Assembly: GCA_030700225.1 (NCBI GenBank)
Contig: JAUYJT010000044.1
Location: 18,516-82,515 of the forward strand
Source of the DNA: Candidatus Nanopelagicales bacterium
GTDB lineage: Bacteria; Actinomycetota; Actinomycetes; S36-B12; GCA-2699445
DNA length: 64,000 nt
Direction of reading: 5' to 3'
The notes under the pieces are model-generated. The model was not told where the DNA came from. It saw only the letters and a program-made list of their open reading frames with translations, and did no database searches. Numbering within the stretch: the stretch's first letter is position 1; each line of letters starts with the position of its first letter. A program made the position numbers and the translations under genes. This document shows, piece by piece, positions 2,247 through 59,919 of the stretch.

Positions 2247-4139
2247 ATGTCGGTGATGTCTCGTCTCATCAGCGGTCTGTCCGCCATCGCATTGGGCCTG
2301 TCGGCGCTTCTGGCGCCCACGGGGGCTTCCGCGCTGAGTCCGGCCATCTCATCTGAAAAGTCTGACGACAAGGACAAGTCTGGTTCTTCGGAGCGCGACG
2401 AAGCCGCCGAGCGCGAAGCCCAAGAGGCAGCGGATAGGGCCGCCGCCGAAGCCGCGATGATCGCCGAAGCCACGAGCCGCCTGCAAGACGATCTATCCCG
2501 CACGCGGCAGGTCCGCGAGGCCGCGCGCGACCGCTACCTAGTAGCGAAGCGCCGTGCGGACAAGCTTGCCCGTGAGGTGGCGAAGGACAAGTCCGCTGTG
2601 GACCAGGCCCGCCGGATCGTCGGGCAGTACGCCAGGTCGATCTACATGGGCGGGCCGACCGACCTGACCCTCCTCGCCTCCGTGATCGACACCAACGAGC
2701 CCGGAGACCTGATCCGACGCGCGGACTCCGCCAGACGGGTGGGCGGAAGCAAGGATTACGAATTCCGTGAGGCCATGGAGGTGTTGCGGCGCACGGAGGA
2801 AACCAAGCTCGCATCGGATGCGGCACAAAGTGCCGCCGAGGTCAGCCTTGGTGCGGTGGACGATCAGCTCAACGGGCTTAGACGCCAACTGGCGGGTGTG
2901 GCTGGCCAGTGGGCGGACCATCTGGCCGTGACGACGTCGCTGCTGGATCCAGAGCAGGCCGAGCGAAACAGCAAGGCGGCGGCATCCTGGGCTGCGTACC
3001 TGACCAGACTCGCGGATCTGCGCGTACCAGTCGTCACGGCTAATCAAATCAAGACTTCAGACCTGCCCGACGGAGTCACGGCATCCCGATCCGTGCCCGG
3101 AACAGCGGTGTGGAAGAGCGGGAGCGACCGCGTCGTCGTACTTCCCGAGCGTGTGATCGCAGCTGTGACCTACGCCGTGTCAGCCCTGGGTACGCGGTAC
3201 CGCTGGCAAGCGAATGCGGCGGGAGAGCTGGATTGCTCGTCTCTGGTCGACCGTGCGTGGAACATGCCGACCGTCGGCCCTTCGGCCAAGGACAACAAGC
3301 GCGCTCTCGTGGCCGGAGGAGTTCCCGGGCTAGCCGAACGAACAGCACTGCTGCCCAGCGACAGCGGGATCATCGGCGACATCGCCTTCCTCAGCGACCG
3401 TCGGCACGGAGTCAACCACGCTGGCATCATCTTGAATGACTCGACAATGATCGCCGCGGACGCGTCCAGCGGGGGTGTCAACGCCATCCCCATCCCAAGT
3501 ACTCGCCTGTGGAAGGTGGGCCGACAAGTTCTGCCTGGTCCAAAGAGAGCAAACGCGCTACCCAAGACCACCGGCAAGCCGTGGCAATGCGGCGCGGATC
3601 CGTCAGCGCTGATGACGACGCCAGACGGCCAAGTGATCGGCAGTCCAGTGCAGTGCCCCGCGAAACCAGAGGTGTTCGGCGAGCTGAACATGGTTCCCGA
3701 AGCGATAGCCGTTGGCCGTTGCGTCGCCGCCATCTGGTCCCAGATCACCACGATCGGGGGATGGCGTCCAAGCGATCCGTATCCCGACCACCCGTCGGGA
3801 CATGCGGTCGACATCATGATGCCTGGGGGGTGCTCGACAGACCCGGCAAACGTGGCGATCGGGAACGCCATCTCGATGTTCTTCATGAAGCACGCCAAGC
3901 GATTCGGCATCAACTACATCATCTGGCACCAGAAGATCTGGACATCAAGCCAGCCCATAATGCAGCCAGCCCAATGGCGTGGCATGAGTGGCCGAGGCAA
4001 CTGCACCGCCAATCACATGGACCACGTCCACATCACGGTCGGGAATCCGCCTCCTGGAGCAGCCACTCCGCTCCCTTCACCCTCGGATGAGCCGAAGCGC
4101 AAGTCGAAGTCGCCCAAGAAGAAGTCGGGCAAGCGCTAG
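2247..4139 (+). CDS. secreted three-module peptidoglycan hydrolase: coiled-coil + NlpC/P60 + C-terminal HxH hydrolase-like domain
   Basis: Signal peptide MSVMSRLISGLSAIALGLSALLAPTGASA is followed by an Ala/Arg/Glu-rich helical region. The NlpC/P60 core is YRWQANAAGELDCSSLV...HAGIIL. The C-terminal GHAVDIMMP...INYIIWHQKIW...RGNCTANHMDHVHITV is paralogous to 13323..14465, and the tail is basic (KRKSKSPKKKSGKR). Confidence 0.8.
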   Translation: MSVMSRLISGLSAIALGLSALLAPTGASALSPAISSEKSDDKDKSGSSERDEAAEREAQEAADRAAAEAAMIAEATSRLQDDLSRTRQVREAARDRYLVAKRRADKLAREVAKDKSAVDQARRIVGQYARSIYMGGPTDLTLLASVIDTNEPGDLIRRADSARRVGGSKDYEFREAMEVLRRTEETKLASDAAQSAAEVSLGAVDDQLNGLRRQLAGVAGQWADHLAVTTSLLDPEQAERNSKAAASWAAYLTRLADLRVPVVTANQIKTSDLPDGVTASRSVPGTAVWKSGSDRVVVLPERVIAAVTYAVSALGTRYRWQANAAGELDCSSLVDRAWNMPTVGPSAKDNKRALVAGGVPGLAERTALLPSDSGIIGDIAFLSDRRHGVNHAGIILNDSTMIAADASSGGVNAIPIPSTRLWKVGRQVLPGPKRANALPKTTGKPWQCGADPSALMTTPDGQVIGSPVQCPAKPEVFGELNMVPEAIAVGRCVAAIWSQITTIGGWRPSDPYPDHPSGHAVDIMMPGGCSTDPANVAIGNAISMFFMKHAKRFGINYIIWHQKIWTSSQPIMQPAQWRGMSGRGNCTANHMDHVHITVGNPPPGAATPLPSPSDEPKRKSKSPKKKSGKR

Positions 4140-12378: not shown

Positions 12379-12393
12379 CCAGACGGCTCCGTG

Positions 12394-12843
12394 TCAGGCG
12401 CAGCCCCACGGACCCCAGCCTGAGCGCTTCCACAGCTTCCACGCCATGTGGTTCTGGGCGAACTTCGGGGCGTTGCTGGCGTAACGCGCGTACCGGCGCC
12501 CGCCTATGCCATTCCACGTCCCGGCTGCGAACTGCCAGGCGCCGTAGTACCCGTTGCCTGTGTTGATCTTGTATCTGCCGCCAGATTCACACCGAACGAC
12601 AGAGCGAGCCTTCGGGGTGCGCGCCCATTTCTTCGAAATCGCGATCCTGCGCAGTGCGGTGCGGCCCAGGTGGTAGCGCTTGATGTGCTTGACCTTGACG
12701 GGCGGTTTCGCCGCCTTCGCTTGGGTCCGCACGGCTGGACTCGCCGCGGGAACTGGTGCCGCCGATGCTGGCGCGGCGGCCAACGTCAGGGCTGATGCCG
12801 ACAATACGGCGGCAAGGGGCATGGCAAGGACGGGCTTTCGCAC
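12394..12843 (-). CDS. secreted Rpf-type transglycosylase-like protein
   Basis: The C-terminal CESGGRYKINTGNGYYGAWQFAAGTWNGIGG is the resuscitation-promoting-factor/transglycosylase-like core. The signal peptide is MPLAAVLSASALTLAAAPASA. GTG 12843 was chosen (AAAGGA upstream); the track ORF to 13050 is an over-extension. Confidence 0.75.
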   Translation of the reverse strand: MRKPVLAMPLAAVLSASALTLAAAPASAAPVPAASPAVRTQAKAAKPPVKVKHIKRYHLGRTALRRIAISKKWARTPKARSVVRCESGGRYKINTGNGYYGAWQFAAGTWNGIGGRRYARYASNAPKFAQNHMAWKLWKRSGWGPWGCA

Positions 12844-13134
12844 GATGATCCTTTGTCGACGGTCCCCTCGCGCGACGCTCGGCCTCTGGGCCGGCCACAC
12901 TAAACTAATCGGGGCTGACACGCGGGGTGTGATCCCGCCGATACGCCGCGGCACGATGCTCGGCCACTGGCGCACGTCCTTCGACCGTAGGCCATGTCGA
13001 GCATGTGGCTCAAGGGCGATCCGTGTGAGCCATCTCGCACCATCACCCACGTTTGAACTGTTGAGCTACCGCGACATCTGGTCCTGGCAGAGCTGGAACT
13101 GCCACTCGCGACAGATCGGAACTGCCCCCGGCGC

Positions 13135-13241
13135 AGAAGCGGCCGCTCCCGACAAACGCGCCCGTTACGCGAAGAAACGTGCGTTACAACGGGCGCGTCT
13201 GTACCCAAACAGTCGCGTTTGTTCGGAACGGCCGTAAAGTC
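13135..13241 (+). other. conserved 107-nt non-coding element, copy 1 (partner at 36212-36318)
   Basis: Ungapped alignment to 36212-36318 gives 81/107 identical bases by hand count, with a 19-nt identical core CAACGGGCGCGTCTGTACC and the block GGAACGGCCG. It contains direct and inverted copies of AACGGGCGCGT(C/T)TGT and lies 82 nt upstream of the 13323 start. Confidence 0.7.
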
Positions 13242-13322
13242 GGCCCGGAGGCGGGTGGAAGCAGGCGCCTTCGGCGGCAGCGGCCGCTTCGACGGACGAG
13301 TGATGGTTCGAAGGGTGGATTG

Positions 13323-14465
13323 ATGAAACAGCGAACGAGCATCCTGACCGCGCTGATCGGACTCCTGGCAGTCGCGACGATCGCTCCAGTCGGCCGAGGG
13401 ACTGGGAGCGCTGCGGCCCGGACTGAGGCGGCCGAACAGTCTCCAGCGACGAGTGCGGCAGTCCTCGAAGGGGAACTCAAGCCGCGCCACATCAGGAGGC
13501 GGACATCGGCCAGGTGGCTGTCTGGCCCTTCAGTCACCAACCAGTCCCGCGACGGCAAGATCGGGCTCATGGCGAGCTCATCATCGCTGATCGTCGCCGC
13601 GCGCAGAGCCATCAAGTCCAGCCCGCTCATCGATGGCCGTAATCCCCGAAAGGCCGAGTTTGGGGAGCCGTACGTTCCTCAGGAATCGTGCGTGCCCATC
13701 GAGCTTCCGGGTGTAGCGGCTTTCAGAGAGTTCCTGCTTGAGGCCTTCCCGCGCCCACCCGAGAGCCTGTGGATCTACAACATCCTTCGCGGATGCGACG
13801 TGCCAGGAGTCAGCGAGCACGAGGAGGGCCGGGCCCTCGACTTCGAAGCCGATCAACGCGATCCAGTGCAGCTCGCCCAGGCCACCAGGTTTCTCAAGTG
13901 GCTGACAGCGCACAAGGGGTACCAGGCCAAGAGATTCGGGATCATGTACGTGATCTACCGGCAGAAGATCTGGGCTTCCTACAAGCCTTACTGGCGGCAC
14001 ATGTCAAGTCGTGGAAACAGGACCGCGAACCATCGTGACCACATCCACTTCTCGTTTACCTGGAACGGGGCGCTGAAGCGGACGAGCTACTGGAAGGGCA
14101 AGACGTCGGCCATGAACTACGGTCCCTGCCCCGTGTGGTCGAATCAGTTCGCCCCGATATCGATCAAGTGGCGCGGGCGCCACCCGAGGACCAGTTCATG
14201 CCCTGGGCGTCCTCGCGTGCCGAGGAAGTGGCGTTCGGCGGCAGCGGCCTCGCTGATGCCATGGAAGTCCGGCGGACGGGTCATGCGTCTCCAGGAGTAC
14301 CTCGTCGAGCAGGGACTGCTCAAGGCCGAGCCAACGGGTACCTTCGGCGCTGCCACCTACAGGGCGATCCGCCGCTGGCAGAAGCAGAACTCGGTTCCAC
14401 GAACCGGGGTCTGGGATGTCCAGACGCAGCACCAGTCGGGCCTTACGTTCGTACGTAACAGCTAG
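13323..14465 (+). CDS. secreted LAS-type (VanY/M15-like) peptidoglycan peptidase with C-terminal PG-binding domain
   Basis: ATG 13323 gives the signal peptide MKQRTSILTALIGLLAVATIAPVG. The LAS zinc motifs are SEHEEGRALD (SxHxxGxAxD) and NHRDHIH (HxH). The C-terminal LQEYLVEQGLL...TGTFGAATYRAIRRWQ resembles PG_binding_1. Confidence 0.75.
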   Translation: MKQRTSILTALIGLLAVATIAPVGRGTGSAAARTEAAEQSPATSAAVLEGELKPRHIRRRTSARWLSGPSVTNQSRDGKIGLMASSSSLIVAARRAIKSSPLIDGRNPRKAEFGEPYVPQESCVPIELPGVAAFREFLLEAFPRPPESLWIYNILRGCDVPGVSEHEEGRALDFEADQRDPVQLAQATRFLKWLTAHKGYQAKRFGIMYVIYRQKIWASYKPYWRHMSSRGNRTANHRDHIHFSFTWNGALKRTSYWKGKTSAMNYGPCPVWSNQFAPISIKWRGRHPRTSSCPGRPRVPRKWRSAAAASLMPWKSGGRVMRLQEYLVEQGLLKAEPTGTFGAATYRAIRRWQKQNSVPRTGVWDVQTQHQSGLTFVRNS

Positions 14466-16818: not shown

Positions 16819-16927
16819 GGGCCCAATCTTGCTCGAATCGTTACTGCGATTGGTGGAGAAAGCGGGCGAAGCTGTTTGACAGGACGCCGCCTGACCGATC
16901 AAGGTAGATGAGAGGGAAGGGGTACGA

Positions 16928-20238: not shown

Positions 20239-22158
20239 ATGCACTCAGGCCGAGCGCGTAACTGGCGCACCCTTCTCGTCAGCGCGGCGGCGTTTGCCCT
20301 CGTGCTGCCTCTTGGCGTCGGCACTCCTGGTGCTGCTGCGGTAACCAGTGAGCACCTGTTGTCCGTGCCCGAGGGACAGATTGAGCACGTGACCGCAGCG
20401 GTTCAGGAATCGGGCGGGACGGTTCTTGAGTCGTTCGAAGTAGCGTCCGCTCTCCTTGTCCAACTGCCGAACGGGGCACGCATTCCCGAGGACGCGACCG
20501 TAGTGCCTGATGTCGCCATGCAGTTCCAGGCCGCGGACGCCGCCACGGAGACGCCCGCAGCCAATACATACCGCGACACGATTGGTGCCTCCAGCAGCCT
20601 GGACGGCTCCGGCGTGACAGTGGCGCTTGTTGACACCGGGGTCGCCGACACTGGCGAGACCCAAGTAACTCACGTCAACGTCAGCGACGGCCCGGACGGG
20701 GACGGGCTGGGCCACGGCACGTTCCTGTCAGGGATCATCGCCGGGGACGGGGCATCGTCGGGAGGTGCCTACTCTGGTGTCGCACCGGGAGCCAGGATCC
20801 TCGACGTTCAGGTCGCGATGCCCGATGGATCGACTTCGCTGTCCAAGGTCCTGTCCGGGCTCCAGGAAGTCGCCGATCGATCGGCTGGGGACCGTACCAT
20901 CAAGGTCGTCTCGCTCGCGCTGTCGAGCGGAAGTCCGCTACCGCCCAGCGCTGATCCTCTAACTAGTGCGCTGGACCGGCTCTGGTCACGTGGGCTCACG
21001 GTTCTGGTCGCGGCAGGCAACGGCGGACCGAAGTCTGTGACATCTCCGGCTTCGGATCCGACGCTTCTCGCAGTCGGAGCGGTAGCTGAAAACAGGACGG
21101 CGAGCCGGTCCGATGACACGGTGGCCGACTTCTCGGCCTACGGCAAGAAGTTCGGCCGTATGAGGCCGGACATCGCAGCTCCGGGTGTGTCCCTGGTCTC
21201 GCTGCGCGCGCCTGGGTCTGTCGCCGATACCGAGAACCCTGAGTCCCGCGTGTTGGACAAGTACTTCACGGGCACTGGAACTTCGATGTCTGAGGCAGTC
21301 GCGGCTGGAGCCGCAGCCGCCTTGCTCGGGGCACGGCCGGGGTTGACCCCGGATCAGGTCAAGCAGCTTCTGGTCGGAACAACCTACTCGGCCGATGGAC
21401 TCACCAAGGGCGCCGGATCGGGCGGACTGGACCTAGCAGCCGCAGCGGCAGCCAAGATCGCCCGCACTCGCCCACTGCCCGCAGCGACGCGTTCCACCCG
21501 ATTCGCTCCCGATGAAGCCGACGCGAGCACGTGGGCCGCCTTCGCCGCCGCCTGGGCAGACGGCGATCTGCAAGCCGTCATTGACGCGTGGAAGGCGCTG
21601 AGCCCCCAAACCCGCCGTTGGGCGGCTAGCGCGTGGTCGCTAGCGGTGTTGGAGCGCGCGCTGGCGACCAGCGAGGATGACTTCGAGCTGCGAGTCTGGG
21701 AAGGTCGCCGCTGGGCAACACAGAAGTGGCAAGGTCGCCGCTGGGCCGATGACGCATGGGTTGGTCGGCGTTGGGCGGGTCGCCGCTGGGCCGATGAGGA
21801 CTGGGCTGGTCGGCGTTGGGCGGGTCGCCGCTGGGCCGATGAGGACTGGGCTGGTCGGCGTTGGGCGGGTCGCCGCTGGGCCGATGAGGTCTGGGGAGGC
21901 CGTCGCTGGGCCGAGAACGACTGGCTAGCGGTCGCGTGGACTGGCCGACGTTGGGCCAGCACCGACTGGGCAGGTCGCCGCTGGGCAGACGAGGCCTGGG
22001 CAGGTCGCCGCTGGGCTGACTTCGACTGGAGCGGCCGACGCTGGGCTGATGAGGTCTGGGAAGGCCGCCGCTGGGCTGACGTGGCATGGGAGGGCCGACG
22101 CTGGGCTACCGAAGTTTGGAACGGACGGCGCTGGGCCGTGACAGGCTGGGGGCAGTAG
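20239..22158 (+). CDS. secreted S8 (subtilisin-family) serine peptidase with C-terminal Trp/Arg-rich repeat array
   Basis: The signal peptide ends in AAA. The catalytic triad contexts are VALVDTGV (Asp), GHGTFLSG (His) and GTGTSMSEAVAAG (Ser). The last ~155 aa contain 16 GRRW(A) units. Confidence 0.85.
   Translation: MHSGRARNWRTLLVSAAAFALVLPLGVGTPGAAAVTSEHLLSVPEGQIEHVTAAVQESGGTVLESFEVASALLVQLPNGARIPEDATVVPDVAMQFQAADAATETPAANTYRDTIGASSSLDGSGVTVALVDTGVADTGETQVTHVNVSDGPDGDGLGHGTFLSGIIAGDGASSGGAYSGVAPGARILDVQVAMPDGSTSLSKVLSGLQEVADRSAGDRTIKVVSLALSSGSPLPPSADPLTSALDRLWSRGLTVLVAAGNGGPKSVTSPASDPTLLAVGAVAENRTASRSDDTVADFSAYGKKFGRMRPDIAAPGVSLVSLRAPGSVADTENPESRVLDKYFTGTGTSMSEAVAAGAAAALLGARPGLTPDQVKQLLVGTTYSADGLTKGAGSGGLDLAAAAAAKIARTRPLPAATRSTRFAPDEADASTWAAFAAAWADGDLQAVIDAWKALSPQTRRWAASAWSLAVLERALATSEDDFELRVWEGRRWATQKWQGRRWADDAWVGRRWAGRRWADEDWAGRRWAGRRWADEDWAGRRWAGRRWADEVWGGRRWAENDWLAVAWTGRRWASTDWAGRRWADEAWAGRRWADFDWSGRRWADEVWEGRRWADVAWEGRRWATEVWNGRRWAVTGWGQ
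21691..22155 (+). repeat. coding tandem-repeat region (W-x-G-R-R-W-A units); 45-bp units at 21763-21807, 21808-21852 (identical) and 21853-21897 (near identical)
   Basis: Direct reading finds GGTCGGCGTTGGGCGGGTCGCCGCTGGGCCGATGAGGACTGGGCT repeated head to tail. Degenerate copies extend to the stop codon. Confidence 0.85.
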
Positions 22159-30691: not shown

Positions 30692-32539
30692 TCAGAAGGC
30701 GCCCTCTGGAAGCTCCATGATGCCCAGGTCCGTACCCTGCGTCACTTCCCGCTCAGCGGCGAGAAGCGGCAGGCGGTTGCTACAGAACCACCTCGCCGCG
30801 GCGACCTTGCCCGTGTAGAAATCGCGATCGGACGGTGACGGATCCCCAGCAAGAGCTGCCTGAGCGACCTCGGCCTGACGCACTAGCAGCCACCCGATGA
30901 CGAGGTCTCCAGCCATCATCAGCAACCGCGTGGTGTTCAGCCCGACGAGGTTGATCTGCTGGATGTCTGTCTGCGAAGCCATGGCCCATTCGCCAAGCTT
31001 GCCTATGGTCAGCTGCACATCCTCCAAGGCGCTTCCAAGCAACTCCCGCTCGCGCGACAGCGAGTCCTGAGCGCCCCCGCCCTTGACCGTGTCGGTGATC
31101 TGGGACGCCAGGTGGAATACGGCCTTGAACTGGTCGCGGACCATCTTGCGGAAGAAGAAGTCCAGGCCTTGGATAGCCGTGGTTCCCTCATAGAGGGTGT
31201 CGATCTTCGCGTCACGGATGTACTGCTCGATCGGGTAGTCCTGCAAGTATCCGGATCCACCCAGAGTCTGCAGGGATACCGCCAGCAGCTCATAGGACCG
31301 CTCCGAACCCACGCCTTTGACGATCGGCAGTAGCAGGTCATTCATCCGCTCTGCCAGGTCCACGTCGATGTCGGCCTCGCCAAGTCGCGCGGCGCTGATC
31401 TGGTCCTGCCACGTCGCCGTGTACTGAACGAGCGCCCGCATGCCCTCGGCATAGGACTTCTGCAGCATCAAGGAACGCCGCACGTCCGGATGGTTGATGA
31501 TCGTCACGCGAGGTGCGGTCTTGTCCAGCATCTCCGCCAGCTTGGCTCCCTGGACCCTCTGCTCCGCGTACTCAAGACAGTTCAGGTAGCCGGTGCTAAG
31601 GGTCGCGATCGCCTTCGTGCCGACCATCATCCGCGCGTATTCGATGACCTGGAACATCTGGGCTATGCCCCGATGCACGTCACCAACGAGGTACCCGATA
31701 GCGGGCTCCTTGTCGCCAAACGTCAACTCGCACGTCGTCGATACCTTCAGGCCCATCTTCTTCTCGAGGTTGGTCGCGTAGACGCCGTTGCGCTCGCCCA
31801 ACTCACCGGTCTCGAGGTCAAACAGGAACTTGGGCACGACGAACAGGCTCAGCCCCTTCGTTCCGGGTCCGCCAGCACCTTCGACTCCCTCTGGCCTCGC
31901 CAGCACCAAGTGGATGATGTTCTCCGACAGGTCATGCTCGCCCGACGTGATGAAGCGCTTCACGCCTTCAATCCGGTAGGTCCCGTCGTCGTTCAGGAAG
32001 GCCTTCGCCCTGCCCGCACCGACATCGGACCCGGCATCCGGCTCAGTGAGCACCATCGTGGCGCCCCAGCCCAGGTCCACCATCAGTGATGCCATGTGCT
32101 TCTGCTGCTCGTTGCCGAGCGCGTGAAGGATCGCGGCGAATCCAGGCCCCGACATGAACATGAACGCGGGCGGGTTGCTGCCTAGGATCAGCTCAGCCAC
32201 AGCCCAGCGCAGGCTTGGGGGTGACGCGATACCTCCGAGCTCTTCGGGAAGCTCAAGGCGCCAGCCCTCGGCGTCCATCAATGCCCGGTAAGCCGCCTTG
32301 AACTCGTCGGGCATCGTGACCGAGCAATCCTTTGGGTCATAGACAGGCGGGTTGCGGTCACAGCTCGCGAAGCAATCGGACAGAGGGCCGCGGGCCAGCT
32401 CGTCGGCCTGATGCAGGAACTCTTTGGCGATGTCGACGTCAACGTCCTCGAAAACGCCCTTACCCAGACGGTCATCAACGCCGAAGACCTCGAAGAGGTT
32501 GAACTCGAGGTCGCGCAGGTTGCTCTTGTAATGACTCAT
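30692..32539 (-). CDS. long acyl-CoA dehydrogenase (FadE5-like)
   Basis: The N-terminus [20 protein letters not shown] is characteristic of mycobacterial FadE5-type ACADs. At 615 aa it is long, and [12 protein letters not shown] is the ACAD C-terminal region. Confidence 0.85.
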
Positions 32540-32607
32540 GCGCTATCTCCCCTTGATCCAAACATGTGCCCCCCAGGCACCAACTCGGGCAGCGGCCCGA
32601 TGCCGCA

Positions 32608-32625
32608 GGTTACCCACCAGTAACC
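32608..32625. promoter_or_regulatory. inverted repeat GGTTAC-N6-GTAACC in the fadE / MFS divergent region (candidate operator)
   Basis: A perfect 6-bp-arm palindrome was read directly. No cognate regulator gene is present in the window. Confidence 0.25.
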
Positions 32626-32747
32626 CAATGATGATACCCGCTGGCAGATGGCGCAAGGCCATGGCACGTGCTCTGCGTCGCAACTTCGTCACAGGGTTGC
32701 GCGGATTAGCACGGTATCTTCGGCGAGGCGGGGGGATGGGAGTGTCG

Positions 32748-34373
32748 ATGCGCGAGCACGTCACGTCGGCTGACCCGCGAAGTAGCACCCGGCGGCAGTG
32801 GATCGGGTTCGGGTTCCTCGCCCTGGCGCTGTTCATGATCGCTGTGGACTTGTCGGTCACCGCGGTCGCGGTGCCATCCATCGTTGCCGACCTGGGGATC
32901 TCCGCCGATGACGCCAGCCTCGTGATGACGGTCTACCTGGTCGTGGCGTCATCATTCATCGTCTTGATGGGCAAGGTGTCGGACTTGGTTGGGGCCAAGA
33001 AGGCCTTCCTCACGGGTGCGATCGTGTTCGCAGTTGGTTCGCTGGTCACGGGCGCGGCGCCGACATTCAGTGTCCTGATCCTGGGCCGCGTGATCCAGGG
33101 AGTGGTCGTGGCTGTGGCCATCCCGGCGTCACTTTCCCTGCTGAACCAAGAGTTCCCTAGCGGCAAGGCGCGGGTTCTGGCGTTCTCGATCTGGACTGCG
33201 GTCATCGGGTCAGCAACAGCCCTGGGGCCACTCATCGGCGGACTGCTGGCCACGTACGAGTCCTGGCGTTGGGCGTTCTTCATCAACATCCCGATCATGG
33301 TCGTGGCCGCGATCGGCGCGGGCATCGCGGTCAGACCGGTGGCGGTCACGCTCAAGGAGAAGGGATTCGATGCCGTCGGCGCGGTCCTGCTGGTCGCAGC
33401 GGTCGCCCTCATCACGTTCGGACTTCAGGAGGCAACCGATCTGGGCTGGTGGACGGCGAAGCGTGACACTTTGCTGGGCGCTTCCATCCCCTGGCCTTTC
33501 GACATCTCCGCCACGCCGATCATGCTCATACTCGGCGCCGGGCTGCTGGCCGTGTTCGTGATTCTGGAGAAGCACCGCGCCCGCAGGGCGTTGGGCGTAG
33601 TGCTGGAACTGAAGCTGTTCAAGGTCAAGAGCTTCACCTGGGGAACCTCGGCGGCAGCGTTCATGACAGCCGCCGTCTTCGGTCTGCTGCTGTTGATCCC
33701 GCTCTACTGCCAATTCATCCTTGAAGCCAACCCGCTCGGAGCTGGGGTCACACTCGCGCCGCTGGGCATCGGGATGGCGTTCGGCGGACCGATCGTTTCC
33801 AGGCTCAACTGGCCGCTGCGCAAGACGGTCCTGATCATGCTGATCATCCAGCCCATTACCACGCTGGGGCTGATACCTCTCATCCAGCCTGGCGGAGAAG
33901 GATGGTGGCTGGCGCCAGTTCTGGTCGTGGACGGATTCGCCTGGGGCGCCGCCTACTCCATCCTCGTGTCCATGCTCCTGGCGGACGTTCCGAAGTCCCT
34001 GTCGGGTGTCGCCGGTGGCACCCAGACAGCCGCCAGGCTCCTGGCGGGCGCGATCGGCAGCGCGATCCTGACCACAATCCTCCTGGGCTCTGTTGTGGCA
34101 CAAATGAGCAGTGTCTCTGGGTCTGGGCTCACGGCCAAGGAGAAAGCCGAGGTCACCCAGCTCTTCCAGTTCTCGTCTCAGCTGCATCAACCGACTACCG
34201 ACTCAGGGCACACAGTCCACACGCTGAGGACCGTGGCACCTTTCCATCAGGTGATCCAGGACACGAAGGACAACATGAGCGCCGGCGTCCGCTTCGCGCT
34301 GCTAGTGGCCGCCTTCCTGTCATTCCTGGGCTTCCTCTGCGGCCTGAAGCTCGACGCCGACGAAAAGGCCTGA
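32748..34373 (+). CDS. DHA2-type (EmrB/QacA-like, 14-TM) MFS efflux transporter, paralogue 1
   Basis: ATG 32748 was chosen. RRQWIGFGFLALALFMIAVDLSVTAVAVPSI and GKVSDLVGAKKAF are typical DHA2 N-terminal motifs. The protein has many TM helices. Confidence 0.8.
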   Translation: MREHVTSADPRSSTRRQWIGFGFLALALFMIAVDLSVTAVAVPSIVADLGISADDASLVMTVYLVVASSFIVLMGKVSDLVGAKKAFLTGAIVFAVGSLVTGAAPTFSVLILGRVIQGVVVAVAIPASLSLLNQEFPSGKARVLAFSIWTAVIGSATALGPLIGGLLATYESWRWAFFINIPIMVVAAIGAGIAVRPVAVTLKEKGFDAVGAVLLVAAVALITFGLQEATDLGWWTAKRDTLLGASIPWPFDISATPIMLILGAGLLAVFVILEKHRARRALGVVLELKLFKVKSFTWGTSAAAFMTAAVFGLLLLIPLYCQFILEANPLGAGVTLAPLGIGMAFGGPIVSRLNWPLRKTVLIMLIIQPITTLGLIPLIQPGGEGWWLAPVLVVDGFAWGAAYSILVSMLLADVPKSLSGVAGGTQTAARLLAGAIGSAILTTILLGSVVAQMSSVSGSGLTAKEKAEVTQLFQFSSQLHQPTTDSGHTVHTLRTVAPFHQVIQDTKDNMSAGVRFALLVAAFLSFLGFLCGLKLDADEKA

Positions 34374-34452: not shown

Positions 34453-36147
34453 GTGAAGAAAACGAAAGGGTCGGCCACCTCCCCAGGCGATTGCGCCGCG
34501 CGTCCTGACACGGACCAAGCCTGCGCCCCACCCAGCCGCGCATCGGCGGGTGAAGGTGCACCCAGGCGACAGTGGATCGGCTTCGGCTTCCTGCTCCTCG
34601 CGATGCTCATCACTGTCCTGGACGCCTCAGCCGCATCCATAGCCGTGCCATCAATCGCTGCCGATCTGAAGATCTCCGCCGGGCCCGCCAGCCTCCTGAT
34701 GACTGTGCAACTCGTCGTGGCCTCGTCTCTCATCATCCTCATGGGCAAGGTGTCGGATCTGATCGGGGCCAAGAAGGTCTTCCTCCTAGGCGCAGGATTG
34801 TTCACAGTGGGCTCGTTGATCACGAGCGTCGCGCCCAACTTCGGTGTCCTGATGCTGGGCCGCGTGGTCCAAGGACTGGTCGTAGCCCTCGTGACCCCGG
34901 CGATCCTGTCATTGATGAATCACGAGTTCCCCTGCGGTCGCCCGCGAGCACTCGCCTTCTCGATTCGGACCGCCGTGATCGGGTCGGGTCTCACTCTCGG
35001 GTTGCTGATCAGCGGCCTCTTGTCCACCTACGCGTCGTGGCGATGGATCTTCCTAATGAATATCCCGTTCATGGTTACCGCAGCGATCGGTGCCGGCGTT
35101 TCGGTCAGGCCGGTCACAGTGAAGCTGAAGGAAAAGGGTTTCGATATCGCCGGGTCGATCCTGCTCGTGCTGTCCGCCATTCTCATAACCTTCGGGCTGC
35201 AGGAGGCAACTGATCTGGGCTGGTGGACAGCGAAACCTGACGCGTTGGTCGGCGGCGTGGTTCCGTGGCCGTTCAGCGCCTCGGTGACACCATTCATGCT
35301 GATTCTGGGCGTTGTATTGCTACTCCTGTTCGTGTTGGTCGAGAAGGATCGCGCCCGCCGGGCGAAAAGCGCGGTGCTGGATTTCAAGCTCTTCGCGGTG
35401 AGGAGTTTCACCTGGGGGACCTCGGCCGCAGCGCTGATGGCCACCCCCGTTTTCGCCATCCCGCTTCTTATCGCCCTCTACGGCCAGTACATCCTCGGCC
35501 TCGACCCGCTGGGGACGGGTGCGATGGTCGTGCCGCTGGGCATCGGCGTCTCCGCCGGAGGGCCGATCCTGTCCAGGGTCAACTGGCCACCGCACACAAC
35601 ACTCCTGATCACGCTGATCATCCAGCCCATCGCCTTGCTGGGGTTGCTGCCGCTCGTGCAACCAGACGGACAGGCCTGGTGGCTGGCCCTAGTCCTCGCT
35701 GTGTACGGATTCGCCTGGGGCGCCGCCTACTCGATCCTCGTGTCGACGCTCCTGGCTGATGTTCCCCAGTCCCTCTCAGGTGTCGCCGCCGGCACTCAGT
35801 CGGCCTTCCGGAAGCTGGCGTCAGCGATCGCCGTCGCGGCCCTTACCACGATCCTGTTGGGCTCCGTGATGGAGGAAATGAGCGGCGTCTCGGAATCTGA
35901 GCTGACCGCCAAGGAGAAGTCTGAGATAACCCAGCTCTACGAATTCTCGCCCCAGGTGCATCCGCCGACCACCGATTCGGGGCAGACCGTCCACACGCTG
36001 AGGACTGCGGAGCCTTTCGATCGTGTGATCCAAGAGACTGAGGACAACATGAGCGCCGGCGTCCGCTTCGCGCTCCTGGGGGCCGCCTTCCTGTCATTCC
36101 TGGGCTTCCTCTGCGGCCTGAAGCTCGACTCCGACGAGAAGGCCTGA
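34453..36147 (+). CDS. DHA2-type MFS efflux transporter, paralogue 2 (tandem duplicate)
   Basis: It is collinear with paralogue 1 over the full length. The last 105 nt differ at only 5 positions from 34269-34373. Confidence 0.8.
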   Translation: MKKTKGSATSPGDCAARPDTDQACAPPSRASAGEGAPRRQWIGFGFLLLAMLITVLDASAASIAVPSIAADLKISAGPASLLMTVQLVVASSLIILMGKVSDLIGAKKVFLLGAGLFTVGSLITSVAPNFGVLMLGRVVQGLVVALVTPAILSLMNHEFPCGRPRALAFSIRTAVIGSGLTLGLLISGLLSTYASWRWIFLMNIPFMVTAAIGAGVSVRPVTVKLKEKGFDIAGSILLVLSAILITFGLQEATDLGWWTAKPDALVGGVVPWPFSASVTPFMLILGVVLLLLFVLVEKDRARRAKSAVLDFKLFAVRSFTWGTSAAALMATPVFAIPLLIALYGQYILGLDPLGTGAMVVPLGIGVSAGGPILSRVNWPPHTTLLITLIIQPIALLGLLPLVQPDGQAWWLALVLAVYGFAWGAAYSILVSTLLADVPQSLSGVAAGTQSAFRKLASAIAVAALTTILLGSVMEEMSGVSESELTAKEKSEITQLYEFSPQVHPPTTDSGQTVHTLRTAEPFDRVIQETEDNMSAGVRFALLGAAFLSFLGFLCGLKLDSDEKA

Positions 36148-36211: not shown

Positions 36212-36318
36212 CGAAACGGCCGCTCCGGCCAAAGGCACCAGTTACGGATGGACGCACCCGTTGCAACGGGCGCGTCTGTACCTCAACGGGCGCGTTTGTC
36301 AGGAACGGCCGCTAACTC
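36212..36318 (+). other. conserved 107-nt non-coding element, copy 2 (partner at 13135-13241)
   Basis: It is 81/107 identical and ungapped versus copy 1. It contains tandem CAACGGGCGCGTCTGTACCT / CAACGGGCGCGTTTGTCAGG and the inverted arm GACGCACCCGTT. It ends 16 nt before GTG 36334. Confidence 0.7.
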
Positions 36319-36333
36319 CGAAGGGGGAAACTG

Positions 36334-37965
36334 GTGATTCCTGTCGATGGCCATTTCTCTGTCAAGCCTCGGCTGATGTGGCGCAAGGTCGTTGCGATAC
36401 CGACCTCCATGCTCACCGTCGCCTTTTTCGTCGTTAGCACCGTGGTCGCAGCCCCGGCAGCCCCGGCGGCGCAGGCTGCCCCGGCAGCCACCAAGGCCGC
36501 AGACTCCGGCAAGAAGTCCTGCACCATCGTGGGCACACCCGGCAACGACCGGATCCGTGGGACAAAGCACCGCGACGTGATCTGCGGCCTCGGCGGTCGA
36601 GACATCATCAAGGGCCTGGGCGGGAACGACGTGATCCGCGGCGGCGCCGGTAACGATGTCCTCAAGGGTGGTCGGGGCGCCGATTCGCTCGAGGGCGGCC
36701 GTGGAGCCGACCAGCTTAGCGGCGGCGACCGCGCGGACGATCTTGACGGCGGACCCGGCGACGACCTCCTCGACGGGGACGAGGGCGGCGACGACATCGA
36801 CGGGGGCTCCGGAGATGACGTCTGCTACATGGACCCAGCCGACACTCAAGCGTCATGTCGTTACGACGAGAAGGCGCCGGTATTCAACCTCGTGTCAGTC
36901 CCCGAGTCCGTATCCCCGAAGAGGGACCGTGGCCGGTTCGAGATCAGATTCAGAGTCTCGGACGACACACGCCTGTCGCGGTACGAGATACCGCAGGTCT
37001 CTCTGAATAGCAGAGCAACCAACTTCCCTCTCATGTCGGTGTCGCTCCAGTCCGGTGACCGACACTCGGGCGTCTGGAAAGCGACTGGCGTCGTGGAGCA
37101 GGACACAGCGGAGCTGCCCCTGAAGCTCGAGATTTCCGCGACGGACGAGATGGGCCGGCTCGGTCGCGCCGAATACCCAGACCTCATCCGAGTGGAGGAC
37201 GGCGCCGCTCTTGAGTACGAGCCACCCGAACTGGTCTCCGCGTCGGTCTCTGGTGACACCGACGGCGTTCTAGATGTCCGCAGCTCGTCGAAGACCCTGA
37301 CTATCGTCATGAGGGTCAAGGACGCCGGAGCCGGCGTCGATCCAATCGGGGTTCACCCGTCTGCCGAATGGGACGGAATGGGGCACCAGGGCGACTCGCG
37401 ACGCGTGTCCGGAGATTCGCACGACGGGGTATACCGACAGGATTTCGATATCCCCAAGGACTCCCGTTCAGGGACCCTCTACTTCAAGGTGTATCTGAAG
37501 GATCGCCATGGCAACCTCACTGTCGTAGAACTCCTCAATCGCAAGATCCGCCTACTCGGAGTTGAACCGGGAACACATGTCCCGGAGCTGGACAGTATTC
37601 GGATCTCGCCACAGCGAATCGCCACACTGAACAACAGCGCCTTGGTCGACGTTGAGTACACCGCCCACGACGCGGACGGCGAAGCGTTCACTCCCGGGGT
37701 CTACATGTCGACGTGGGACGGCGAGGCCTTCTGGAACCCGGAATCAATCGAGAGGATTTCCGGAACCGCCTCCAACGGAACCTGGCGTGTGCGGTTCCGC
37801 ATTCCGCGAGGAACACCGCCTGGGAAACTCGCGGTCACGTGGACCGTCCACCAGTCGGGCAAGTACGTGTACCTAGCTTCTCCCGGCTTCCCCGGGTACG
37901 CAGACTTCACGCCACAGCAACTCGGAGGACAGCCCGGGTACGTTGAAGTGATCGACGAACGGTAG
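36334..37965 (+). CDS. secreted protein with RTX-like (GGxGxD) calcium-binding repeats and an uncharacterised beta-rich C-terminal region
   Basis: RBS AAGGGGGAAA precedes GTG 36334 (alternative ATG 36376). The signal peptide ends AAPAAPAAQA. The repeat run is GLGGRDIIKGLGGNDVIRGGAGNDVLKGGRGADSLEGGRGADQLSGGDRADDLDGGPGDD. Confidence 0.75.
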   Translation: MIPVDGHFSVKPRLMWRKVVAIPTSMLTVAFFVVSTVVAAPAAPAAQAAPAATKAADSGKKSCTIVGTPGNDRIRGTKHRDVICGLGGRDIIKGLGGNDVIRGGAGNDVLKGGRGADSLEGGRGADQLSGGDRADDLDGGPGDDLLDGDEGGDDIDGGSGDDVCYMDPADTQASCRYDEKAPVFNLVSVPESVSPKRDRGRFEIRFRVSDDTRLSRYEIPQVSLNSRATNFPLMSVSLQSGDRHSGVWKATGVVEQDTAELPLKLEISATDEMGRLGRAEYPDLIRVEDGAALEYEPPELVSASVSGDTDGVLDVRSSSKTLTIVMRVKDAGAGVDPIGVHPSAEWDGMGHQGDSRRVSGDSHDGVYRQDFDIPKDSRSGTLYFKVYLKDRHGNLTVVELLNRKIRLLGVEPGTHVPELDSIRISPQRIATLNNSALVDVEYTAHDADGEAFTPGVYMSTWDGEAFWNPESIERISGTASNGTWRVRFRIPRGTPPGKLAVTWTVHQSGKYVYLASPGFPGYADFTPQQLGGQPGYVEVIDER

Positions 37966-41965: not shown

Positions 41966-42375
41966 TGGCCCCTGCCGCGACCCTGTCCGACGTGCTCGAT
42001 GCCGCAGCTGCCGGCAGCACGTCGGTGGGAGAGATCGCTCGGAGGACGGGTCTGTCGGCCTCGATGGTCCGAGTAGCGCTCGACCGGCTTTCCGCCCTGC
42101 GCATGCTCCAGTGCGATGAGCTTCCGACCGGCTGTCCAGCCTCGGGTTGCTCCGAGTGCCCAGCGGCGGGCATCAACGCGGGAGAGTGCCCCAGCGACCC
42201 CATCGGTCGGACCACTGCCTGCTTCAGCGTCGCCAGCGTCTTACCGACCATTTCGGGTCGATCGCGCGAGCGGGAATCGGTGCGCGAGGGGGGAGTTGAA
42301 CCCCCACGCCCTTGCGGGCACACGGACCTGAACCGTGCGCGTCTGCCTATTCCGCCACTCGCGCGCGACGCCTGA
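41962..42375 (+). CDS. FeoC-like winged-helix / Cys-rich protein; reading frame runs through the antisense tRNA-Leu before reaching a stop
   Basis: ATG overlaps the feoB stop (ATGATG). SVGEIARRTGLSASMVRVALDRL is HTH-like, and the Cys cluster is CDELPTGCPASGCSECPAAGINAGEC. Third-position bias fades after about 42240, so the C-terminal tail is doubtful. Confidence 0.55.
   Translation: MMAPAATLSDVLDAAAAGSTSVGEIARRTGLSASMVRVALDRLSALRMLQCDELPTGCPASGCSECPAAGINAGECPSDPIGRTTACFSVASVLPTISGRSRERESVREGGVEPPRPCGHTDLNRARLPIPPLARDA
42281..42364 (-). tRNA. tRNA-Leu (anticodon CAG), long variable arm
   Basis: The reverse complement reads GCGCGAGTGGCGGAATAGGCAGACGCGCACGGTTCAGGTCCGTGTGCCCGCAAGGGCGTGGGGGTTCAACTCCCCCCTCGCGCA. 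The acceptor GCGCGAG/CTCGCGC, the anticodon loop TTCAGGT and the T-arm GGGGG-TTCAACT-CCCCC fold as a cloverleaf. Confidence 0.9.
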
Positions 42376-58309: not shown

Positions 58310-59629
58310 CTAGCCTCCGAAGAGACGCGATAGGTTGGGCGCCGACCGACCGCCTGCGGTGCTGAACATGCCGACGACGACAATCTTGCCGCTGCGCTGA
58401 ACCGCCAGGGAATAGCCGCCGACGCTGTCACCTTCCGAACCATCGCCCGTGATACCACCGTTGTCGCGGATGTTCATGTTGAAGGACTTGTCACCCGCGC
58501 CGTGCGGCCCGAACCGCGCGATCCCGTTGGCCGCGATCCCGCCAGCCGTGGTGAAGTACCCCGCGACGACGATCTTGCCTGTTCGCTGAATCGCGACGGA
58601 GCGAACGTCGGCGACAAATACATCACTTTCGAGGCCGCCGTTGCGGCGGATGTGCTTGTTGAACGCCTTATCAGGCGCGCCGTGCGGCCCGAACCGCACG
58701 ATCCCGTTGACCGCCTTGCCGCCAGCCTTAGTGAACCAACCCGTGACGACAACCTTCCCGTCGCTGCCCGTAGCGACCGCGTCAACTTCGTCCAGGACTC
58801 CGCCATTGTGGCGGATGTGCTTGTTGAACGCCTTGTCAGGCGCCCCGCCTGCCTTGAACCGCGCCAGGCTGTTCACCCTCCTGCCACCAGCGCGGCCGAA
58901 GTCGCCGCCGACCACGATCTTGCCGTCCCGCTGAACAGCCACGGAATTCGCGCCGACATCCGTGCCACCGTTGCGTCGGATGTGCTTGTTGAACGCCTTG
59001 TCAGGCGCCCCGCCTGCCTTGAACCGCGCCAGGCCACTCGCCATCTTGCCGCAAGCCTTGGTGAAGCCGCCGGTGACCACGATCTTGCCGTCGGTCTGAA
59101 CAACAACCGACATTGCGCTCGCGTTCAGGCCACCGTTGCGTCGGATGCGCTTGTTGAACGCCTTGTCAGGCGCCCCGCTGGCCTTGAACCGCGCGATCCT
59201 ATTCACTTTCATTCCGCCAGCGTGGGTGAAATCACCAGCGGCGACGATCTTGCCGTCCCGCTGAACAGCCACGGATGACACGTAGTAGTCAAGGCCACCG
59301 TTGCGTCGGATGCGCTTGTTGAACGCCTTGTCAGGCGCCCCGCTGGCCTTGAACCGCGCGAGGTTGTTCGCCCCCTTACCGCCAGCCTCCGTGAAGCTGC
59401 CAGCGACCACGATCTTGCGGTTGCTCTGCACCTGCACTGCGTAGCCGACGGGCTGAGGACCGCCCAGACCACCTTTGCTGGCGAGCGTGGCGTTGAAGGA
59501 CCTATCGAACTGCCCGGGATCGGCGGCCTGAGCCCCGCCGATACTCGCCAGAATCAGCCCGGTAGCCGCAGCTCCCGCAAGAGTCACCCACACGCTCCGC
59601 CTCGCGTCCACCGCGCACTTTGAGCTCAC
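58310..59629 (-). CDS. secreted delta-60-repeat (beta-propeller-like) protein, about 7 repeats
   Basis: GTG 59629 follows GGAGGA. The signal peptide is WVTLAGAAATGLILASIGGAQA. Units of about 50 aa recur: G.PDKAFN..IR.NGG....a.SVAVQ.DGKIVV.G.FT.AGG...N.iARF. Confidence 0.75.
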   Translation of the reverse strand: MSSKCAVDARRSVWVTLAGAAATGLILASIGGAQAADPGQFDRSFNATLASKGGLGGPQPVGYAVQVQSNRKIVVAGSFTEAGGKGANNLARFKASGAPDKAFNKRIRRNGGLDYYVSSVAVQRDGKIVAAGDFTHAGGMKVNRIARFKASGAPDKAFNKRIRRNGGLNASAMSVVVQTDGKIVVTGGFTKACGKMASGLARFKAGGAPDKAFNKHIRRNGGTDVGANSVAVQRDGKIVVGGDFGRAGGRRVNSLARFKAGGAPDKAFNKHIRHNGGVLDEVDAVATGSDGKVVVTGWFTKAGGKAVNGIVRFGPHGAPDKAFNKHIRRNGGLESDVFVADVRSVAIQRTGKIVVAGYFTTAGGIAANGIARFGPHGAGDKSFNMNIRDNGGITGDGSEGDSVGGYSLAVQRSGKIVVVGMFSTAGGRSAPNLSRLFGG

Positions 59630-59720
59630 TGTCAATCCTCCAGGTCGGAGCGGCCCATCCGCTCGCGCTACATCGTCGCATGTTGGCTCAGTTGGCGTAC
59701 GCCTTTGGTTCCACGCCACG

Positions 59721-59919
59721 TCATCCACAAGATCACAAAGTTGTCCACAGGCTGAAGCCCGTCCCGAACGCTCATTGTCCAGAAGCGCTCACTCACGGTG
59801 GCGAGCACTCCAGATCGGGACATACCAGGACAGACCGAATTGCACTTCTAGTGATCTCCGGGCAGCAGCGAGCCACGCGGATGCGACCTGCGTCACTGCG
59901 ATATCCACAGTCATCCACA
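59721..59919 (+). promoter_or_regulatory. cluster of four DnaA-box-like 9-mers (same orientation)
   Basis: The boxes are TCATCCACA (59721-29), TTGTCCACA (59741-49, a perfect match to the actinobacterial consensus TTGTCCACA), ATATCCACA (59901-09) and TCATCCACA (59911-19). They lie in the 317-nt gap between the delta-60 gene start and the rhomboid stop. Confidence 0.45.

Follow-up and report, generated by a model that had tools for sequence, protein, structure and literature searches.

Gene context of the intergenic repeats

The window, by which we mean the whole 64-kb stretch of DNA analysed here (G+C content 64%), contains two copies of a 107-bp sequence that lie 23 kb apart (Table 1). Both copies are intergenic and on the plus strand, in agreement with the placement given in the first-pass annotation. 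Copy 1 occupies a 479-nt divergent region between an rpf-like gene, which is read from the minus strand, and a peptidase gene on the plus strand, and it ends 82 nt before the ATG of the latter (13323). The peptidase had been described as a peptidoglycan peptidase with a signal peptide, and its PG_binding_1 domain, its VldE family match, a weak VanY match and a signal-peptide-like N-terminus agree with that description. This protein is identical to one from the MAG GCA_034523275.1, which is labelled 'Candidatus Nanopelagicales bacterium'. Copy 2 lies downstream of an MFS transporter gene, 65 nt past its stop codon, and is separated by 16 nt from the GTG at 36334, where the gene of an RTX/HemolysinCabind protein may begin, as had been recognised earlier. 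Two starts are conceivable for the RTX gene: the GTG, which a strong Shine-Dalgarno sequence (AAGGGGG) precedes by 7 nt, and the NCBI start, an ATG 14 codons later (36376) with no obvious Shine-Dalgarno sequence. These 14 codons hold four of the substitutions that distinguish strains.

Several other repeats were observed in the window. The MFS gene directly preceding copy 2 is the second of two tandem paralogues (32538-34373 and 34453-36147), which show 72-74% nucleotide identity over the compared 300-nt stretches (D5, D6). A second VldE-family protein, of 630 amino acids and with an NlpC/P60 domain, is encoded at 2247-4139, 10 kb upstream of the peptidase gene, with which it has a 65-nt stretch in common (74% identity, D9); no element was found upstream of this second gene. 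The open reading frame at 20239-22158 on the plus strand encodes a secreted protein of 639 amino acids with subtilase-like motifs recognised by eye, and the tandem DNA repeats of 15, 30 and 45 nt at 21688-22136 (D1, D2) correspond to about 20 C-terminal 'GRRWAD(E)xW' peptide repeats. In the gene at 58310-59728 on the minus strand, 165-nt tandem repeats at 58455-59429 (D3, D4) correspond to six DUF5122 beta-propeller repeats identified by Pfam.

Table 1. Positions in the window of the two repeat copies, their parts and the adjoining genes
Feature	Position	Strand	Basis or remark
rpf-like transglycosylase gene, signal peptide, divergent from copy 1	12394..12843	-	Pfam Transglycosylas E 8e-19; L001 gene call
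Copy 1 of the palindromic repeat	13135..13241	+	81/107 identity to copy 2; BLAST E 8e-18; fold z ~-4.6
Copy 1 outer stem, left arm CGGCCGCTCC	13140..13149	+	partner 13225-13234 in all folds predicted
Copy 1 inverted unit M'2, reverse complement AACGGGCGCGTTTGT	13152..13166	-	pattern match, 1 mismatch
Copy 1 degenerate inverted unit M'1	13171..13185	-	same columns of the ungapped alignment as M'1 of copy 2
Copy 1 direct unit M1, core of the invariant 19-mer	13188..13202	+	exact match
Copy 1 direct unit M2 AACAGTCGCGTTTGT, 20 nt after M1	13208..13222	+	pattern match, 3 mismatches
Copy 1 outer stem, right arm GGAACGGCCG	13225..13234	+	identical in all copies
Partial extra arm, inverted degenerate copy of the left end of the element GAAGCGGCCGCTgCCGcCgAAgGCGCC	13264..13294	-	22 nt downstream of copy 1
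Peptidase gene downstream of copy 1	13323..14465	+	PG_binding_1; VldE family; weak VanY match
MFS transporter gene upstream of copy 2	34453..36147	+	Pfam
Copy 2 of the palindromic repeat	36212..36318	+	alignment; repeat finder; fold
Copy 2 outer stem, left arm	36217..36226	+	folds; hairpin alignment
Copy 2 degenerate inverted unit M'2 CCAAAGGCACCAGTT	36229..36243	-	fold pairing with M2; alignment
Copy 2 inverted unit M'1	36248..36262	-	pattern match, 3 mismatches; apical hairpin with M1
Copy 2 direct unit M1	36265..36279	+	exact match
Copy 2 direct unit M2	36285..36299	+	pattern match, 1 mismatch; ...GTTCAT in the other allele
Copy 2 outer stem, right arm GGAACGGCCG	36302..36311	+	identical in all copies
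RTX-type calcium-binding protein gene (HemolysinCabind) downstream of copy 2	36334..37965	+	alternative start 36376

Extent and internal structure of the element

Copies 1 and 2 align without gaps at 81 of 107 positions, which reproduces the count made in the first-pass annotation, and they carry the identical 19-mer CAACGGGCGCGTCTGTACC and the identical block GGAACGGCCG that it had pointed out. With copy 1 as the BLASTN query and the window as the target, copy 2 was recovered at E 7.8e-18, and a repeat finder independently grouped both copies as a two-copy family (D7, 13136-13241 and 36213-36318, 76%). To define the extent of the repeat, identity between the copies was counted in 10-nt blocks: it reaches 8 to 10 of 10 in the best parts and is 1 to 4 of 10 directly to the left of offset 0 and to the right of offset ~105. 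This sharp drop at both borders indicates a discrete element and excludes a larger segmental duplication, of which the copies might otherwise have been remnants. The element is an imperfect palindrome of about 100 bp within 107 bp; it is non-coding, and the open frames that run across it are incidental. In being intergenic, well below 300 bp and without coding capacity, it resembles a MITE. A weaker, gapped resemblance had also been proposed at 16860-16896, and this candidate third site was rejected, as nhmmer gave no match there with the two-copy profile (E<=100) or with a four-sequence profile (E<=5).

The whole element forms one long imperfect palindrome, a property absent from the earlier description, and it matches its own reverse complement in nhmmer searches at E 1e-13 to 1e-17. 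From the outside inwards the layout comprises a 10-bp outer stem, the inverted units M'2 and M'1, a 2-nt centre, and the direct units M1 and M2. In the outer stem, which is GC-rich, CGGCCG(C/T)TCC (CGGCCGCTCC in copy 1) pairs with GGAACGGCCG over 10 bp, and these sequences together with the inverted units constitute terminal inverted repeats such as those of MITEs. Apart from one C.A mismatch, the outer-stem pairs do not vary among the copies; the mismatch is common to copies 1 and 2 and is replaced by a T-A pair in the third copy described below. The outer stems begin with AACGG and resemble truncated units. The unit itself (AACGGGCGCGTYTGT) is about 20 nt long and is present twice in inverted and twice in direct orientation in each element.

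A scan of both strands of the 64 kb with the 15-mer AACGGGCGCGTCTGT, allowing up to three mismatches, revealed three matches in copy 1 (13188 and 13208 on the plus strand, 13152 on the minus strand) and three in copy 2 (36265 and 36285 on the plus strand, 36248 on the minus strand). The tandem units at a 20-nt period and their inverted copies, as first described, are therefore real. Beyond the two copies the scan returned a single match in the 64 kb, at 42332 and with three mismatches, which is the chance level, and we conclude that there is no standalone unit elsewhere in the window beyond chance at this threshold. The 14-bp palindrome that had been assigned to each unit stands in part: the repeated unit is confirmed, and the palindrome is weak, with only 5 of 7 complementary pairs, a degree of pairing that by our estimate is not unusual for one unit taken alone. 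Additionally, a partial extra arm was detected close to copy 1 (Table 1). Its similarity to the element is weak, both in BLAST against the left ends of copies 1 and 2 (27-31 nt, 84-85%, E 0.001-0.004) and in nhmmer (E 0.08 in one run and 1.4 in a later one).

A third copy on another contig

The third copy was found by an indirect route, in which the frame that is open across both copies was translated, the two peptides were aligned, and 1.84 billion protein representatives were searched. The single match, P0187 (E 7.5e-5), proved to be a spurious open reading frame that reads into a full element at L021:1825-1931 (nhmmer E 1e-28 to 1e-31). A translated search of this type detects a copy only where a gene caller has called an open reading frame over it in that frame, and that one match was obtained despite this restriction suggests that there are further copies. 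The L021 contig comes from sample SRR13727534, which also yielded contigs with proteins identical to those of the window, and from this shared origin we infer that it represents the same or a very close genome.

Directly upstream of copy 3, between it and a lipoprotein-like gene, lies the remnant of an IS5-family transposase gene of about 230 nt (L021:1585-1810), truncated at both ends. In tblastn this remnant has 45-51% identity to annotated IS5/ISRer2 transposases (E 2e-4), and it weakly matches the middle of the NCBIfam IS5 model (positions 143-193 of 258). It shows that the intergenic region of copy 3 received mobile DNA before. Downstream, 61-67 nt away, is a gene for a GAF-GGDEF diguanylate cyclase, a cytoplasmic protein with an acidic N-terminus and no signal peptide. 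The tie to secreted-protein genes, which had been drawn from the two window copies, does not hold, since copy 3 precedes a gene whose product is not secreted. A dispersed repeat without such an association had been named beforehand as the outcome that would speak against a shared regulatory element, and this is largely what we found; it still leaves room for a role as operator or leader.

Orthologous sites and strain alleles

The closest other ortholog of the peptidase, from a related species (L005), has 66% amino acid identity. Its intergenic region contains no element, no unit with up to two mismatches, and no significant fold up to the peptidase start. We considered L005 as an exact empty site and rejected it: the element is absent, but the flanks are too diverged to reveal insertion borders. 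For copy 2, the more distant MFS homologues were rejected as empty sites, as they are not syntenic. About 100 nt beside the start of the rpf-like gene (12843, minus strand) are almost unchanged between the window (12844-12950) and L005:20-115, and the remainder of the region between the rpf-like and peptidase genes has diverged. The conserved stretch is probably the promoter or 5' UTR of the rpf-like gene; it has no Rfam match, ydaO included, and its fold is no better than that of shuffled sequences (z 0.78).

Three further assemblies of the species (L001-L003) carry copy 1 without any change. In the same intergenic region, a 5-nt indel (ACTAA, ~12900-12904) and about 10 SNPs within 12890-13075 separate the window from the MAG and Logan assemblies; from ~13076 to the peptidase start, copy 1 included, all of these sequences are identical. 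For copy 2, L008 and L014 have a second allele. It differs by five substitutions, none of them compensated: one breaks a C-G pair in M'1 and two alter M2, and M1 is untouched. All five are located where a block of divergence begins that continues into the RTX gene, a position that indicates neither special conservation nor special decay. The allele was accordingly rejected as evidence for fast decay of copy 2.

The RTX gene itself is hypervariable between strains, with 52-70% nucleotide identity across ~36850-37750 when the window is compared with L008 and L014, in a setting where the end of the upstream MFS gene is 100% identical and the 3' flank about 98% identical. In the aligned strains this pattern points to a surface-protein gene that has been subject to allelic replacement or diversifying recombination.

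Searches for further copies and for a mobilising enzyme

A DNA pattern of two units was searched in 185,579 species-representative genomes and returned one chance match only, in a Saprospiraceae MAG. The same scan missed even copy 1, which is unchanged in its source MAG, and the species is therefore outside that collection; what the scan does tell is limited to the absence of the pattern from the other species represented there. The two-unit pattern also gave one chance match in JGI metagenome contigs, inside a coding region. Viral contigs contained no true copy, only two bare 18-mer matches without extended similarity; blastn against plasmids and phages gave no match, and a further 10 kb to the left and 3 kb to the right of the window held no further copy. 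Three loci are known, two of them within ~80 kb of this organism's DNA and one on L021.

No transposase gene is present in the window, and neither a RAYT nor a partner transposase gene was found in the DNA examined. Target-site duplications are not apparent: no direct repeat of at least 3 nt recurs in a consistent position beside the three copies, and single copies have only suggestive imperfect repeats. IS5-family elements were considered as parents and rejected, as the ends of relatives on Rhodococcus and Streptomyces plasmids have no similarity to the element.

Folding and conservation of the hairpin

The predicted RNA folds of the element are very stable. The folding energies for the plus and minus strands are -61.3 and -67.6 kcal/mol for copy 1 (z ~-4.6) and -55.7 and -69.3 kcal/mol for copy 2 (z -3.2 and -6.3), and across the three copies both strands fold well below shuffled sequence (z -2.8 to -7.4). 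Copy 3 forms the most stable hairpin of the three, with z ~-7, an uninterrupted stem of 24 bp and a perfect outer stem. The pairing of the units with their inverted copies, which had been anticipated, is borne out by this hairpin, and two inverted units that form a hairpin outside genes are what characterises a REPIN. On an alignment of four sequences 83% of the hairpin cells are paired, versus 30-42% when the partners are slid. The better-folding strand is the minus strand for copies 1 and 2 and the plus strand for copy 3. An argument for the transcribed strand from G-U versus A-C mismatches was rejected as uninformative, the G-U counts being 2-5 on either strand.

The compensatory changes that had been proposed as a check are not in excess: changes on both sides affect 2 of 42 pairs of the long hairpin, a number reached by 301 of 500 shuffles. 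RNAalifold favours an alternative hairpin between M1 and M2, which is enabled by G-U pairs; the alignment is too small for this to count as evidence of a switch. The pairwise identities among the three copies (81, 86 and 86 of 107) are star-like. Their majority consensus has 35 Watson-Crick pairs, 2 G-U pairs and 3 mismatches among 40 resolved pairs, and the individual copies, with 4-9 mismatches, are poorer palindromes than the consensus. Such a pattern in three sequences would be expected from the independent decay of a more perfect palindrome.

Origin and possible function of the element

The analysis describes a discrete palindromic element that is found at no fewer than three dispersed loci, is absent from an orthologous site and matches no known RNA family. 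We interpret it, with moderate confidence, as a lineage-restricted, non-coding, palindromic intergenic repeat of the MITE, REP-REPIN or ERIC kind in an uncultured freshwater actinobacterium; strict membership among MITEs or REPINs is more than we can claim, given that neither a target-site duplication nor a partner transposase was found. This interpretation is supported by the sharp borders and full-length palindromy of the element, the position of copy 3 beside IS debris, the absence of the element from L005, the star-like relationship of the copies and the better palindromy of their consensus. The lack of an Rfam match, of a predicted sigma-70-like promoter or intrinsic terminator and of standalone units in the 64 kb, together with the uncompensated substitutions in the copy 2 allele, also speaks for it. 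Against it stand the small number of loci, the missing target-site duplication and partner transposase, the divergence of the copies, their common orientation, and the unequal conservation of the two arms.

We propose that a more perfectly palindromic master sequence dispersed into intergenic DNA and gave rise to the copies. Whether as RNA or as single-stranded DNA, the whole element would form a single long hairpin, and a transposase acting in trans may have mobilised it by recognition of the repeated units or of this hairpin. The copies would then have decayed independently, and the two sites next to secreted-protein genes would be places where copies happened to survive and would not reflect a purpose. 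Where a copy forms part of a 5' UTR, its hairpin would probably have incidental consequences for the gene that follows, by altering mRNA stability, read-through or the accessibility of the ribosome-binding site. At 76-80% identity, the copies are older and have diverged further than those of a typical recent MITE burst, and nevertheless they retain the hairpin.

A possible but rather doubtful alternative is that the element is a cis-regulatory DNA module, in which the ~20-nt units, above all M1 (CAACGGGYGCGTCTGTACC), are operators for one DNA-binding regulator. The peptidase, RTX and diguanylate cyclase genes, and possibly the rpf-like gene, would then be under common control, and such a module may have spread by transposition and been co-opted afterwards. 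Each of the three copies points in the same direction as the gene that follows and stops 16-82 nt short of its start, which agrees with an operator; a common orientation of three copies has, however, a chance probability of 0.25, and the distance to the start codon varies five-fold. The two arms also differ in conservation. The gene-proximal (right) arm is invariant at 40 of 48 positions versus 28 of 47 in the distal (left) arm (Fisher p 0.013), and M1 is invariant at 18 of 19 positions across the three loci versus 10 of 20 in its partner M'1, the least conserved segment of the element (p 0.003, for a pair chosen post hoc). Constraint on a hairpin conserves both arms equally and neutral decay erodes them equally, and this asymmetry, which was noticed post hoc, is explained by neither. 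The sequence may thus have a function on one side only, for instance as a binding site for a protein or as a regulatory signal that faces outward. In addition, the 20-nt period amounts to two helical turns and would set the units on one face of the helix, and M1 is the unit left intact in the divergent allele of copy 2, although M2 differs between strains. The operator reading is weakened by the lack of a standalone unit elsewhere in the 64 kb and of any unit at the L005 ortholog, by the poor internal palindrome of the unit, and by the fact that no regulator gene adjoins any copy. An ECF-like GGAAC seen by eye in the right outer stem was rejected as a promoter element, as it has no consistent -10 partner.

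The palindromic repeat and the operator may also be combined. A REPIN-like element that carries the operator of one regulator in its M1 arm would act as a mobile cis-regulatory cassette and wire unrelated genes into an envelope or c-di-GMP-linked regulon; we consider this unlikely.

A structured RNA is less probable still, and we regard it as quite unlikely. The element would in this case be a shared 5' leader of the riboswitch or attenuator type, or a small RNA, in which alternative pairings (M' with M, or M1 with M2) control translation or termination downstream. The very stable folds on either strand are compatible with such an RNA, as are the G-U-rich M1:M2 hairpin that competes with the long hairpin in RNAalifold and the end of copy 2 immediately before a Shine-Dalgarno sequence. 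There is, however, no consistent strand asymmetry in G-U content or fold energy across the copies. The covariation is no better than that of shuffles, and the strain substitutions are uncompensated. At the gathering score, Rfam recognised two tRNAs only in the whole window, which is the scan that covered copy 2, and at E<=10 the regions 12950-13450 and 12380-13140 gave only a chance snoRNA-like match outside the element, with ydaO among the families that did not match. No upstream promoter is predicted: a search for sigma-70-type promoters (-35/-10 boxes with a 16-18-nt spacer), which does not cover ECF or other promoter types, found zero sites in or beside the window copies in both regions. 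Moreover, the L005 ortholog lacks the element, and the downstream genes are functionally unrelated. The first-pass annotation had proposed either a multi-site operator or a structured leader or small RNA; of this proposal the anatomy survives, with its units and stable hairpin, and the link to secreted-protein genes does not; neither Rfam nor covariation lends it support.

A factor-independent terminator or insulator hairpin between transcription units would suit the long GC-rich hairpin and the position of copy 2, 65 nt past the MFS stop codon, and actinobacterial terminators often lack U-tracts, but it is very improbable, as no intrinsic terminator is predicted in or beside the window copies, no T-run follows any of the three copies, copy 1 lies between divergent genes where there is nothing to terminate, and copy 3 follows a pseudogene fragment.

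If the element belongs to a plain repeat family, it documents such a family in an uncultured actinobacterial lineage that has been little studied, and it cautions against taking shared upstream hairpins for regulons; it would be useful mainly as a marker for strain typing or assembly breakpoints. If the gene-proximal arm proves to be a protein-binding site, it would be a case of regulatory rewiring by a mobile hairpin element, of interest for the evolution of bacterial regulation.

Comparison with known systems

The tandem units invite comparison with multi-site operators and iteron arrays, in which protein-binding repeats of about 20 bp are arranged in tandem and in helical phase. The element resembles them in its 20-nt period, in its direct and inverted units and in the strong conservation of one unit, and differs in that the units are confined to the element and the whole array moves as one palindromic block. 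The ydaO or c-di-AMP riboswitch is the leader of actinobacterial rpf and cell-wall hydrolase genes. Copy 1 is likewise structured, non-coding and located beside rpf-like and peptidoglycan hydrolase genes; in contrast to ydaO, the regions around copy 1 give no covariance-model match even at E<=10, and the other copies precede unrelated genes.

REPs are repetitive extragenic palindromes, and their inverted doublets, the REPINs, are mobilised by RAYT transposases and have been described in Pseudomonas and enterobacteria (Bertels & Rainey 2011, PMC3116915; PMC3337134). The element studied here agrees with REPINs in being short (~100 bp), non-coding and extragenic, in its imperfectly palindromic inverted units and long hairpin, in its restriction to one lineage, in showing no obvious target-site duplication and in having partial or solo arms beside full copies (here 13264-13294). 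It differs from them in having two or three tandem units per arm, where REPINs have one, in its actinobacterial host and in that no RAYT gene was seen in the DNA examined. REP sequences have a conserved GTAG head, which is absent from the element.

The Correia elements of Neisseria and the ERIC/IRU sequences of enterobacteria are intergenic imperfect palindromes of 100-150 bp with terminal inverted repeats. They are often co-transcribed with their neighbours and variably present at orthologous sites, and some of them carry outward regulatory signals. Correia elements have a TA target-site duplication. Unlike Correia and ERIC MITEs, the present element has no target-site duplication and no parent IS with the same ends that we could find, its copies have 76-80% identity, and three loci are known. 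Like the Correia and ERIC/IRU elements, it is an imperfect palindrome with terminal inverted repeats that is scattered over intergenic regions, and outward signals such as those of some of these elements would fit the conservation of its gene-proximal arm.
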